From contig JBHLNT010000029.1 of NCBI GenBank assembly GCA_048941265.1, positions 1 to 34,992 of the forward strand: a stretch of DNA of 34,992 nucleotides, read 5' to 3'. The stretch's first letter is position 1. Every line of letters begins with the position of its first letter. This DNA is from Promethearchaeota archaeon (GTDB lineage Archaea; Asgardarchaeota; Lokiarchaeia; Sigyniarchaeales; SOKP01). The translations under genes and the position numbers were made by a program. Below, piece by piece: positions 2,953-34,992 of the stretch. A model generated the notes under the pieces. That model saw nothing but the letters and a program-made list of their open reading frames with translations, did no database searches and had not been told where the DNA came from.

Positions 2953-3092
2953 CGCCCCCGGCTTTCCCAACGGCCTGGAAATCAAACCGTTTATGGATCG
3001 AACATGCGACCGCCCGGTTACAGCCGAATTCTCTCTATAAGCTCTGATTGTCGATAACAGCCGGGTGCTCTACCTAACTGAGCTACGGAGGC
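2953..3092 (-). tRNA. tRNA-Asn(GTT) with two introns (37/38 at 3019-3054; 63/64 at 2963-2992)
   Basis: Spliced sequence GCCTCCG TA GCTC AGTTAGGTA GAGC A CCCGG CTGTTAA CCGGG CGGTC GCATG TTCGATC CATGC CGGGGGC G forms a full cloverleaf with G73. Confidence 0.9.
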
Positions 3093-3128
3093 GTGATTTT
3101 CCAATGCATAAACGCAAAAAGCGTTTAA

Positions 3129-3233
3129 TGCTCTCGCCGGGATTCGAACCCGGGTCACCAGGGTGAAGGCCTAGTATGCCTCGCTGTCTTCCTAAGAATG
3201 AGGGAGACTTTGGCCGGACTACACTACGAGAGC
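3129..3233 (-). tRNA. tRNA-Glu(TTC) with D-loop intron (~21/22, 3180-3209)
   Basis: GCTCTCG/CGAGAGC acceptor stem, CCGGG-TTCGAAT-CCCGG T arm, CTAGG-CCTTCAC-CCTGG anticodon arm, and a 30-nt hairpin insert between GGCCAA and GCAT. Intron boundary uncertain by 1-2 nt. Confidence 0.85.
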
Positions 3234-3407
3234 ATAGTATATTGCGTTAATTTTTAGATTTTTAATTAAGTAAAGTTTTTTCTAAAAAAAAAATTTAAAA
3301 TTAACTTATTTACAAGGTAGATGTTTTAATCAACTAAGAAATTAAAAATTTTCTATTATGAATTTCAATTAAGAAATTAATTCCTATCATTTTATTTTGA
3401 AGTTTAA

Positions 3408-3525
3408 TGCGGGAAGAGGGATTTGAACCCCCGAACTTCTACAAGACTGGATTCTAAGTCCAGCGCCTCAAGTCGGCTTTCGAAAAGGCTCGAAAATGCC
3501 ATTAACCAGACTTGGCAATTCCCGC
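3408..3525 (-). tRNA. tRNA-Leu(TAG) with D-loop intron (21/22, 3469-3501)
   Basis: GCGGGAA/TTCCCGC acceptor, CTGGA-CTTAGAA-TCCAG anticodon arm, long variable arm, A73. BHB: GGTT/GACT helix, AA^T and TG^A bulges, GGC/GCC intron stem. Confidence 0.92.
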
Positions 3526-3548
3526 TTAAATATGACCTAAAATTTAAA

Positions 3549-3708
3549 TGCAGGGAGTGGGATTCGAACCCACGTACTCCTACGAGACCGGATATCTCAT
3601 CAGAGTTGCTAAATCAACGGAATTTATTTTTTAAAGATCTTGAGTCCAGCTTATGAGATTATTTCTCAATAGAGTCCGGCACCGTTGACCAGGCTTGGTT
3701 ATCCCTGC
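3549..3708 (-). tRNA. tRNA-Leu(CAA) with two introns (32/33 at 3644-3673; 37/38 at 3594-3638)
   Basis: GCAGGGA/TCCCTGC acceptor, spliced anticodon arm CCGGA-CTCAAGA-TCCGG, long variable arm. BHB central helices CCGG/CTGG and CTCA/TGAG. Confidence 0.9.
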
Positions 3709-19590: not shown

Positions 19591-20349
19591 TCAATAACTC
19601 TGATAAACACCTTCTTCGGATTGATAAATTTTTGATTCCATCTCTAAATCTGTAAGATAATTTTTAAAATCCTCCTCAGAAAGTTCTAGAGTGTTTTTTA
19701 ATTCTTCAAAACTAATCCCTTTTCCCTCTTTAGTGTATTTTTTGATTATTGAATAAATTCTTTCTTTAACCTCGTCAGACTCTGAAGTTTTTTCATTCTC
19801 AAATAATTCGTTAATATCAATTTCATCAGAAGATAAATCAATCTCATATTCCTCTTTAATTATTGCGGGGATTTGTTCTAATTCTCCAAATTTAATTTCT
19901 TTTATTATTTCTGCGTTTCTTAATAAGATTAAATCCGGTTCTCTAACTTTTTTGATGATTTCAGGATAAATTTGAGGAAAACCATTCCATTCTCCAATTC
20001 TACCAATAATATCTACAATATCGCCTTTAATAAAATCACTATATTGATCTGGAGTTATCTGAAAAAGAATTGCACGAATTAAACCCGTACCATCATCTAA
20101 TTTAAATTCCAAATTTACTTTAAGATCGGTTTCTTCATCTGATGAGATTGTACTATCAACATCCTGAGTACTTATAAGCTCTCGCTTCTCAGTAATAGTT
20201 GCAATAATTCGGACTCTTTTAATCTTTCCAAATAAAGTTAAATATGAATTATCATTACTTAAATATTGTCCTTCTAAAAGGTGTTTAATCCAACAACAAA
20301 CTGCGGGAAATCTTTTAAAACTCTGCGTTTCATTCATACTGATCAACAA
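19591..20349 (-). CDS. RPA32/RPA2-like single-stranded DNA-binding subunit (OB fold plus C-terminal winged helix)
   Basis: RVRIIATI...LDDGTGLI...GDIVDIIGR OB fold, an acidic linker and a GISFEEL...LE..SKIY winged helix. Start may be the ATG at 20337. Confidence 0.75.
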   Translation of the reverse strand: MLISMNETQSFKRFPAVCCWIKHLLEGQYLSNDNSYLTLFGKIKRVRIIATITEKRELISTQDVDSTISSDEETDLKVNLEFKLDDGTGLIRAILFQITPDQYSDFIKGDIVDIIGRIGEWNGFPQIYPEIIKKVREPDLILLRNAEIIKEIKFGELEQIPAIIKEEYEIDLSSDEIDINELFENEKTSESDEVKERIYSIIKKYTKEGKGISFEELKNTLELSEEDFKNYLTDLEMESKIYQSEEGVYQSY

Positions 20350-20435
20350 ATAAAAATAAACTATTTTTTAATAAAGAGCTATCTATTAAAAAATAAATAT
20401 ATTGAAATAAATACTATCTTTGTAAAAAGGTAAAA

Positions 20436-20606
20436 TGGTAGCGGGGGTTCGAGATCCATAGCGCTGGAAATCAGCGGATACTTTATTCATCAGGAAATCA
20501 CGTTCAGTCTTTCTGTGTTGAACGAACGATCTCAGGGTTTCTTAAGTGAAAACTCTATTTTCCATTTATGAGCCCTGCGGCATAAACCAGGCTAGCCCAC
20601 CCCGCT
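20436..20606 (-). tRNA. initiator tRNA-Met(CAT), CCA encoded; intron at 37/38 (20539-20566) plus a 64-nt T-loop insertion parsed as three introns
   Basis: A1-U72 (AGCGGGG/CCCCGCT), three consecutive G-C pairs in the CAGGG/CCCTG anticodon stem, GTTCG/CGAAC T stem and ACCA end. Confidence 0.93.
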
Positions 20607-20629: not shown

Positions 20630-20646
20630 GTTATTTAAATTGTTTA
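20630..20646 (-). promoter_or_regulatory. BRE/TATA-like promoter of tRNA-iMet
   Basis: Minus strand reads AAACAA-TTTAAATA about 26-33 nt upstream of the tRNA 5' end. Confidence 0.55.
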
Positions 20647-33625: not shown

Positions 33626-33792
33626 AAGCACTAAAAATCGTGCTCATAGGAACATACCCCATTGTAAAATCAAATGTCCCAAATATGAGGTTTGATTTAC
33701 AATCGCGAATACTTGCCAATTTTATATGCTTATCTTTCACACACTTAATACCTGTGCATAAGCAATCTGAACCTTTCCTTGAGTAGACGCCA

Positions 33793-34992
33793 TGACGCCT
33801 CCGCTATTTGGTGGATATCTTGGCTTGGGCACCGATGAAGAGCGTGACAAGCTGCGATAAGCTTGGGTTAGTCGCACGTAGACTTCGACCCCAAGATCCT
33901 CGAATCGGACATCCGCTTGCGGCCCAATAATCCGCAAGATTCCCATAACCCTAAGGTGAGGGAAGGGGAACCCTGGGAAGTAAAACATTTTAGTACCAGG
34001 AGGAAAAGAAAACAACAGTGATTCCGTGAGTAACGGCGAGCGAAAGCGGAACAGGTCAAACCGAATCCAATCGGGAAACCTTTTGGAGATGTGGTGTGTG
34101 GACCTCATACGACCTCCCTAGTGAAGGTGAAAACCTCTGGAATGCCGTGCCATAGAGCGTGACAGCCGCGTAACCGCAAACTAGAAGGTTGATTTGAGGT
34201 ATCCCGAGTAGTGCGGGATGGTTTTCTCGTACGAATGTGCCAAACACATATTGGCAAACCTAAATATGTCCCAAGACCGATAGTGAAGTAGTAGCGTGAG
34301 CGAAAGATGAAAAGTAACCCGGAAGGGTCGTGAAAAGTGCTTGAAACCAAATAGCTTAATAAGGATGCAGCCTGAAAGGATAGATTCTGAGCGAATGTGT
34401 TCCGGTGACGGAATATCAGAGCACAGAGGACTAGGGTTGCATCATCAGTCTGGAATCATTGGCCAGGGAGTTTATAGTAGAGGCGAGCTTAAGTGTCTCG
34501 CGGCACGGAGGCATAGGGAAACCAATATTCTTGCATCCTAATTATCACATTAGGATGACCTATTCGTTATACGATGAGCTATGCTCTCTAAAAACGTTTA
34601 GCGATTCCTTCTAAGGAATTAGGTCAGAAGAATGGTCTTAAAGGGCCAAGAGTCTCTGCTATAATACCCGAAGCCGGTCGATCTATTCCTGGGCAAGATG
34701 AAGCCGTTCGAAAGGGCGGTGGAGGTCTGCAGTAGTGATGACGTGCAATTCTCTTACATGACCTGGGAATAGGAGCAAAAGGCTAATCTAGATCGGTGAT
34801 AGCTGGTTCTCCCCGAAGTTGGTGTCAGCCAAGTCTCAAGCGAGGTAGCCAGTGGGGTAGAGCACTAATTGCGAAGTAAGGGGAAGAAATTCCTCGCCTC
34901 GCTCTTAAACTCCGAAACTGCTGGCGCCGTAGACCTTGGGAAACGGGTTGGTGGGCGTAAAGTCCATCGCCGAGACGGGAACAACCTAGACT
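33793..34992 (+). rRNA. 23S rRNA, 5' part (runs off the window; 5' end approximate)
   Basis: Conserved LSU segments GGTGGAT...CCGATGAAG..CGTG.CAAGCTGCGATAAGC, AAACAT.TTAGTACC, ACCGATAGTGAA..AGTA.CGTGAG.GAAAG and GATAGCTGGTTC. Confidence 0.97.

Follow-up and report, generated by a model that had tools for sequence, protein, structure and literature searches.

Asgard genomes in which 92–95% of the tRNA genes are interrupted have been described (PMC11291895, 2024), and a recent preprint reports that intervening sequences average 2.2 per Asgard tRNA gene and can number five, together with repeated lineage-specific gains, two paralogues of the splicing endonuclease EndA in 44 of 60 genomes, and a miss rate of 30% for the standard annotator (Goswami et al. 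2026, 10.64898/2026.10.13.758758). Multiple introns with non-canonical bulge-helix-bulge (BHB) motifs are known from Thermoproteales, where the reported maximum is three per tRNA gene (PMC4033280); nested archaeal introns that have to leave in a given order are also known (PMC3728597, citing Sugahara 2008 and Tocchini-Valentini 2009), as are two introns in one T arm, at 53/54 and 59/60, in ARMAN-2 (PMC3239211, 2011). Heavily interrupted Asgard tRNA genes and nested, order-dependent introns are already published, and the gene analyzed here fits that picture. It is an initiator tRNA-Met (tRNA-iMet) gene on the minus strand of a 34,992-nt stretch of DNA from a Promethearchaeota archaeon of the Lokiarchaeia (contig JBHLNT010000029.1, positions 1 to 34,992; hereafter, the window), for which an earlier interpretation of the letters alone (hereafter, the original prediction) had proposed four introns.

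This is a functional and probably the only initiator tRNA-Met gene of its host. We propose, tentatively and at somewhat less than an even chance, that it contains three introns of the BHB type, and that its T loop would be spliced in two steps whose order is forced, with A59 as an exon of a single nucleotide. In describing motifs we write h for the flanking helix on the exon side, H for the central helix, h' for the inner helix and B for a bulge; the canonical class has a central helix with 4/4 pairs, two 3-nt bulges and at least one flanking helix. The parts of the gene and its flanking signals are as follows.

20436 to 20606, minus strand: tRNA-iMet gene, 171 nt, including the discriminator A73 (20439) and an encoded CCA (20438-20436)
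20567 to 20606, minus strand: exon 1, positions 1-37, with the acceptor 5' strand, the D arm, the anticodon stem 5' strand and CTCATA
20539 to 20566, minus strand: intron 1, 28 nt at 37/38, with a relaxed BHB motif
20518 to 20538, minus strand: exon 2, positions 38-58, with A38, CCCTG, the variable loop AGATC, the T stem strand GTTCG and TTCAA
20483 to 20517, minus strand: 35-nt insertion, lineage-specific, that separates A58 from A59 and is either a 58/59 intron of its own or the 5' part of a 64-nt intron
20482, minus strand: A59, a one-nucleotide exon if the 35 and 29 nt leave separately, intron-internal if there is a single 64-nt intron
20453 to 20481, minus strand: family-conserved 59/60 intron, 29 nt, with a full hBHBh' motif once the 35 nt are gone
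20439 to 20452, minus strand: exon 3, positions 60-73, with T60, the T stem strand CGAAC, the acceptor 3' strand CCCCGCT and A73
20632 to 20639, minus strand: TTTAAATA, TATA-box-like, 26-33 nt upstream of the first tRNA nucleotide (-33 to -26)
20424 to 20435, minus strand: T-runs, TTTT and then TTTTT, directly 3' of the encoded CCA

Like the genes of the two Asgard surveys (PMC11291895, 10.64898/2026.10.13.758758), as far as their available text describes them, this gene combines multiple non-canonical introns, failure of the tRNA finders, two EndA paralogues in the host and fast intron gain. Those surveys centre on Atabeyarchaeia, Freyarchaeia and Jordiarchaeaceae and find T-arm insertions mostly at canonical BHB boundaries; their available text mentions neither "initiator" nor a single-nucleotide exon, and in the preprint, which counts stretches of at least 10 nt, a composite of 35 + 1 + 29 nt would count as one. 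The original prediction had put the introns of such archaeal tRNAs, which it placed mainly in Thermoproteales, at up to three, which agrees with what is accessible of the Thermoproteales report (PMC4033280) but not with the up to five given for Asgard archaea (10.64898/2026.10.13.758758). As in the nested introns of Thermoproteales, where the last motif forms after the others have left, the 29-nt intron would in our favoured reading depend on the prior removal of its neighbor; unlike in the described cases (PMC3728597, in the portion available), the ordering in this gene is one that we infer. With ARMAN-2 the gene shares the 59/60 position, at which the T arm mimics the anticodon arm, and differs from it in that the ARMAN-2 introns lie 6 nt apart rather than 1 nt, and in that the ARMAN-2 enzyme is of the three-unit epsilon2 type while the genome studied here encodes two separate paralogues (PMC3239211, available text). 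A search that stopped short of key primary papers and their supplements turned up no account of the gene itself or of BHB introns separated by a single nucleotide. An intron spacing of one nucleotide, with the exon half of the central helices shared between the two introns and in an initiator tRNA, might be new.

The identity of the gene can be read directly from the minus strand. The acceptor stem is AGCGGGG/CCCCGCT with A1:U72 as its terminal pair, and the anticodon CAT stands on the stem CAGGG/CCCTG, in which three consecutive G:C pairs (29-31:39-41) adjoin the loop; we take the A1:U72 pair and the three G:C pairs to be marks of archaeal and eukaryotic initiator tRNAs, and the gene has both. 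Over 41 nt, exon 1 matches compact orthologues without introns at 100% identity. The two strands of the T stem, GTTCG (20527-20523) and CGAAC (20451-20447), are separated by 71 nt, made up of 7 nt of loop and 64 extra nt. The description in the original prediction, of a gene interrupted by 28 nt at 37/38 and with a T loop enlarged by 64 nt, was confirmed. ARAGORN made no tRNA call at the locus in the unspliced window, nor when only some of the introns were removed, and the Rfam tRNA model had no match there at its gathering cut-off or at E values up to 10. Both of the products considered below, one with A59 and one with C59, were recognized by ARAGORN after splicing in silico as tRNA-Met(CAT) with a regular cloverleaf and a 7-nt anticodon loop. 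Upstream, TTTAAATA resembles what we take to be the archaeal TATA consensus, in a region that is less conserved in a related genome, and downstream the T-runs after the CCA likely act as a transcription stop, as judged from their position.

The architecture of the locus recurs in other data. A contig from another sample (X2) spans 20200-20591 and a contig from another study (X3) spans 20200-20486, each with 0 differences, and another species-level genome of the same genus (G001; 10 contigs, 92% complete) carries a matching 168-nt architecture with 91% identity. These matches corroborate the assembly and speak against the misassembly that had been named as a possible refutation. The sequencing runs listed for the locus, nine in number, include none of RNA. 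A single joint seen in X3 (20452 to 20562, side 21) most likely stems from the iMet gene of a relative and was not used. Between the genome of the window (G000; 5.0 Mb in 361 contigs, 91% complete) and G001, the 76 exon positions show no difference (0/21 in exon 2, 0/14 in exon 3), and the introns differ at 15 of 92 (16%), distributed as 5/28 in the 28-nt intron, 8/35 in the 35-nt insertion and 2/29 in the 29-nt intron; at the intron rate, the identity of the exons has a probability of about 1e-6. This contrast shows purifying selection on the gene, the exons of which are also the same as in 43 other orthologous genes except for covariation in the stems. A second iMet gene was sought in both genomes with the exons and with a compact orthologue as BLAST queries, and none was detected, so that the intact tRNA-iMet elsewhere that the original prediction had offered as a further refutation did not come to light in either genome. 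On this comparative evidence, the locus is a real, selected initiator tRNA-Met gene and probably the sole copy.

The same evidence bears on the idea that the insertion has disabled the locus, which would then be a decaying copy, and that the working initiator tRNA lies in an unassembled part of the genome. Such a copy could have escaped notice in a genome that is 91% complete in 361 contigs, and tRNA genes are commonly missed; but the exons are identical between two species-level genomes whose introns differ at 16% (P about 1e-6), G001, in only 10 contigs, keeps the architecture and yielded no other iMet gene, and a promoter-like TATA element and a T-run accompany the locus. We regard this explanation as scarcely credible.

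To place the 64 nt in an evolutionary context, we compared 58 loci from the genus, family and order, which represent 45 distinct orthologous iMet genes. The T-loop insert is absent from 22 of them, in which the loop reads TTCAAAT, measures 31-37 nt in 21, and reaches 64 nt in two, those of G000 and G001. In the 21 intermediate cases the insert begins after A59 and represents one homologous 59/60 intron, in which TTCA pairs with TGRR as the central helix and the bulges are AA^N and NN^T. The inner helix measures 2-4 bp, the internal loop is rich in A, and the hairpin has the stem CTG/CAG or TTG/CAA and the loop nTyTC; 19 of these introns are of class hBHBh' and two are hBH. The last 29 nt of the insert in the window (20481-20453) belong to this family, with the central helix TTCA/TGGA, the 3' bulge TC^T, an inner helix TA/TA and the hairpin CGCTG-ATTTC-CAGCG. 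Once the upstream 35 nt are removed, and only then, the motif forms with h=5, H=4 and h'=2 plus the hairpin, which places it in the canonical BHB class; the unit that the original prediction had called C is a genuine BHB intron with just the dependence ascribed to it. By contrast, the 35-nt insertion (20517-20483) aligns to nothing in the other orthologues, and the enlarged insert is restricted to G000 and G001, or 2 of 135 genomes of the family and, with a pattern for enlarged inserts, 2 of 161 of the class. Because the 29 nt have homologues in relatives and the 35 nt are confined to these two genomes, the 64 nt are, by sequence comparison, an old, family-wide 59/60 intron and a younger 35-nt insertion between A58 and A59.

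The structure of the old intron is under selection across the family. In the alignment of the 59/60 introns (A2), 96.5% of the cells are paired, vs 16–47% with slid partners, and 8 of 17 pairs, including all four pairs of the inner helix, change on both sides; the covariation score was reached by 0 of 500 shuffles, and all four helices show compensatory changes or are invariant across the 21 orthologues. The selected adjacency of the inner helix to the 5' bulge suggests that this adjacency may matter for splicing, and in G000 and G001 the inner helix adjoins the 5' bulge only after the 35 nt have been removed.

A separate observation concerns the hairpin loop of the same intron (A2 columns 25-37; 20475-20462), where T, C and C beside the closing pair are near-invariant in the 21 orthologues while the stem covaries. 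These conserved letters are not explained by splicing alone.

In the reading that we favour, intron 1 would be an ordinary relaxed anticodon-loop intron, and the 35 nt would have entered between A58 and A59 in the common ancestor of G000 and one congener, separating the central helix of the old intron's motif from its inner helix. A two-subunit endonuclease would cut the 35-nt unit first, using a weak motif in which G53-C56 pair with GAAT (20488-20485) and the cuts fall at AA^C and AA^A. Ligation would then join A59 to A58 and recreate the canonical hBHBh' motif of the old intron, which would leave second to give the loop TTCAAAT, invariant in the family. The order would be forced, and A59 would be ligated on both sides in turn without ever being released alone.

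Several observations are consistent with this two-step route. Position 59 is A in 43 of 43 other distinct orthologues, and C59 occurs in 0 of the 24 parseable ARAGORN tRNAs of G000. A 4/4 helix at precisely the boundary that restores A59 is present in the 35-nt unit, which ends in GAAT-AA, and would be expected at rates of 3.7% (random genomic 35-mers) and 5.3% (shuffles); G001 retains this helix through an A-to-G change (GGAT), by which a T-A pair becomes T-G. Differences between the two genomes number three in 20489-20453, the region that comprises the 3' end of the insertion, A59 and the 29-nt intron, vs 7/27 in the rest of the insertion.

Other observations weigh against separate excision of the 35 nt. 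The unit has a full central helix (GTTC/GAAT, H=4), but its flanking helices amount to h=1 and h'=1 in both genomes, so that it lies outside the canonical class and fits the helix-only relaxed class alone; among the intron instances of the orthologue set, 62 of 62 have a flanking helix of at least 2 bp and 61 of 62 one of at least 4 bp, to which the 35-nt unit would be the lone exception. The T stem, the helix TTCA/TGGA and the TC^T bulge can all form in the raw precursor, where an enzyme of broad specificity should cleave two nucleotides beyond the helix and produce C59. Conservation of the insertion has little power as evidence, its carriers being two related genomes. The TGAAT at the end of the insertion might simply have been inherited by partial duplication of the old intron, with which the insertion shares TGATTTCC (rough chance about 0.03). 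Constrained folding gave −41.9 kcal/mol for the one-step and −42.5 kcal/mol for the two-step conformer in G000, and −54.6 and −50.7 kcal/mol, respectively, in G001; in G000 this folding does not discriminate between the models, and the precursor as a whole is not unusually stable (z = −1.07).

These points lead to the most serious rival, in which the insertion merely enlarged the old 59/60 intron, and a single 64-nt intron (20516-20453) leaves at once, giving two introns in all and a mature loop TTCAACT with C59. With the native T stem serving as h (5 bp), the enzyme would recognize this stem together with the TC^T bulge and the helix TTCA/TGGA, and would make its 5' cut two nucleotides past the helix (AC^A). 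The original prediction had listed this parse (AC^A..TC^T, TTCAACT) as its alternative, and it recurred when we enumerated all paths of at most three steps to a 7-nt loop with a 4/4 central helix as the sole criterion, an enumeration that returned 288 paths in G000 (26 ending in TTCAAAT) and 1310 in G001 (27 ending in TTCAAAT). It is the only path with a single step and the only parse that has 4/4 central pairs together with a flanking helix at every step in both genomes; the 64-nt unit is hBH in G000 (h=5, H=4, h'=0) and hBHBh' in G001 (h=5, H=4, h'=3, with two G-U pairs), and falls in the canonical class. Loss of the inner helix seems to be tolerated in the family, seven orthologous 37/38 introns being hBH with h'=0, and a relaxed hBH (BHL) intron at 59/60 in the pre-tRNA-Cys of ARMAN-2 is reported to be cut in vitro by a broad-specificity endonuclease (PMC3239211, available text). 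In G000 the one-step conformer equals its competitor in stability, and in G001 it has an advantage of 3.9 kcal/mol; the C59 product of this route is accepted by ARAGORN as tRNA-Met, and the route requires no coincidence in the inserted sequence.

What one-step excision would alter, on the other hand, is a position that is A in all 43 other orthologues and never C in the 24 tRNAs of the genome. It also leaves unexplained why a 4/4 helix stands at the exact boundary that restores A59 (a 3.7–5.3% chance) and why G001 has retained it, and it would put the strongly covarying inner helix 38 nt, rather than 3, from the central helix. The ARMAN-2 precedent differs in size, its intron being 13 nt long where the candidate here has 64 nt with 38 nt between central and inner helix (PMC3239211, available text). 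We judge one-step removal to be a realistic possibility, if one that we would not expect to prevail.

The original prediction went further and divided the 35 nt into two stacked introns at 58/59, A (18 nt) and B (17 nt), to be followed by A59 and then C (29 nt), with an obligatory order A, B, C and four introns in the gene as a whole. Its units are present as described: A at 20517-20500 (GTTC/GAAC, cuts AA^C and GT^G), B at 20499-20483 (GTTC/GAAT, cuts AA^G and AA^A), A59 at 20482, and C at 20481-20453 (TTCA/TGGA, cuts AA^G and TC^T, stem CGCTG/CAGCG), all of them recovered in the enumeration. Of the three units, C alone has the full hBHBh' motif. Both genomes allow a path of this kind that ends in TTCAAAT and has 4/4 central helices, formed in G000 by GTTC/GAAC and next by GTTC/GAAT, and in G001 by GGAC and next by GGAT. 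In G000, unit B is HBh' with a 3-bp inner helix, and the most stable local helix of the precursor (CGTTCA/TGAACG) includes GTTC/GAAC. Unit A, however, lacks a flanking helix, its values being h=0 and h'=1 in G000 and 0/0 in G001, the inner helix of B shrinks from 3 bp in G000 to 1 bp in G001, and neither A nor B belongs to the canonical class. In the minimum-energy fold of G000 the helix of A runs to six uninterrupted pairs, within which two 3-nt bulges would not form. Among random genomic 35-mers, 31% have an internal site that permits this kind of division, as do 42% of shuffles; of the 288 paths in G000, 26 lead to TTCAAAT, and the cascade is one of these. Comparison with relatives, which the original prediction had proposed as a way to find orthologues with subsets of the introns, turned up the C-type intron as the sole T-loop insert in 21 and units A or B alone in none, the latter count being 0 of 161 genomes. 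The four-intron cascade is over-read from chance helices, and we consider it improbable. Of the original prediction, the single-nucleotide exon and the ordered removal would follow if the mature tRNA keeps A59, but the division into A and B lacks support; its suggestion that splicing might act as a control point for translation initiation found no evidence that bears on a regulatory role.

Which structures the host can cleave depends on its splicing endonuclease, and the host has two distinct EndA paralogues, both detected with PF01974 (107 bits on contig C258 and 69 bits on contig C323).

57304 to 57528 of contig C258: EndA paralogue, in an open reading frame of 201 aa, TIGR00324
14914 to 15162 of contig C323: EndA paralogue, in an open reading frame of 198 aa, TIGR00324

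The 201-aa protein is closest to the catalytic subunits of solved two-subunit enzymes (3p1z_B, 3ajv_B and 2cv8_A), and the closest solved relative of the 198-aa protein is 1a79_A, which we take to be a chain of the M. jannaschii type. Two distinct paralogues are what is expected of a host with a two-subunit (alpha-beta)2 enzyme, and this one would probably have such an enzyme. Cleavage of relaxed motifs is reported for two-subunit endonucleases (PMC3239211, available text), and because the host has two EndA paralogues, either splicing route is enzymatically conceivable.

Some features of the insertion bear on its origin. The insertion (20500-20493) and the old intron (20473-20466) have in common the 8-nt direct repeat TGATTTCC. 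A segment of the insertion, TGAACG-TGATTT (20506-20495), can pair with AGATCG(TT)CGTTCA (20532-20519), in the variable loop and the T arm, over 6 + 6 pairs with two G-U, a pairing that is the minimum-energy local fold and is mostly retained in G001. The repeat and the complementarity, both near chance level, hint at insertion by local duplication or template switching. A mobile intron family was considered and rejected. The hairpin CTGNNTYCCAG has 29 copies in the genome, of which only the one in the iMet gene stands in a tRNA context as judged by eye, and BLAST of the precursor against the genome returned only chance-level matches of 13-21 nt. In a search for wider carriers, 0 of the 240 matches listed in genome and metagenome contigs hold an iMet gene; three of these listed matches passed a loose filter, all in non-tRNA contexts, and matches to a 15-letter pattern were at chance. 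There may be further carriers of the insert in public data.

A guide RNA was also considered, a box C/D guide RNA being known from inside an archaeal pre-tRNA-Trp intron (PMC4090602, available text). The insertion, A59 and the old intron together span a sequence like a C/D half-unit, with UGAUGA (20492-20487), a 12-nt spacer and CUGA (20474-20471). This spacing is presumably that of archaeal C/D half-units. The candidate was rejected: box C is not kept in G001 (UGCUGG), the Rfam snoRNA match has E = 7.5, and the 12-nt guide has no complement in rRNA or tRNA, its one further exact occurrence in the genome being a 12-mer on contig C195, no more than chance would give.

The 37/38 intron has a central helix CTCA/TAAG with 3/4 pairs, h=5 (the anticodon stem) and h'=1, where the canonical class asks for 4/4. 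Of 35 orthologous 37/38 introns, 21 share this 3/4 helix, so this relaxed form is evidently functional in the family, to judge from its recurrence. Intron content differs widely among the orthologous iMet genes: in two relatives (G002 and G005) a 48-nt intron at 37/38 is the only one; two others (G004 and G006) have no 37/38 intron and instead carry a 31-nt intron near 45/46 beside the 59/60 intron; G007 has introns at 37/38 and 59/60; and G030 combines a 30-nt D-loop intron with the 59/60 intron. Judged from these gene structures, intron turnover in the iMet gene appears to be fast within the genus and family.

The iMet gene is one of many in its genome that escape detection. ARAGORN with introns allowed reported 27 tRNAs in G000, several of them doubtful (such as Phe-AAA and Asn-ATT), the Rfam tRNA model gave 22 above its cut-off, and most of the tRNA set of this genome is hidden from standard tools. 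A regular-expression census of T-loop introns across the genome returned 4100 candidates and was too unspecific in this AT-rich genome. Elsewhere in the window, a cluster of matches to the Rfam tRNA model RF00005 lies on the minus strand at 3005-3601, with 49.2 bits at 3129-3233, 28.4 bits at 3415-3480 and weak matches at 3005-3092 and 3549-3601; a default ARAGORN run made no call in this cluster, which probably comprises further intron-interrupted tRNA genes. At the other end, the first 1115 positions of an archaeal large-subunit rRNA match 33787-34992 on the plus strand (902 bits) and run off the end of the window.

The general picture of interrupted Asgard tRNA genes is already published and is unchanged by the iMet gene. 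Missed entirely by tRNA finders, the gene makes a good benchmark for them, and the orthologue series, with no T-loop intron, the old one only, or the old one with new sequence, documents stepwise intron gain within one genus. If the 64 nt leave as a single intron, a 59/60 intron would tolerate a further 35 bases separating its inner helix from its central helix, and the otherwise invariant A59 of the initiator tRNA would be replaceable by C. If the two-step route that we favour is true, an archaeal endonuclease and ligase pair would be able to process introns 1 nt apart, and the gene would be a natural test of the minimal structure that a two-subunit endonuclease of the Asgard type needs. It would also show that the order of intron removal can be set by RNA folding alone, and that a new intron can persist beside an old one in an essential single-copy gene by splitting the old intron's motif.

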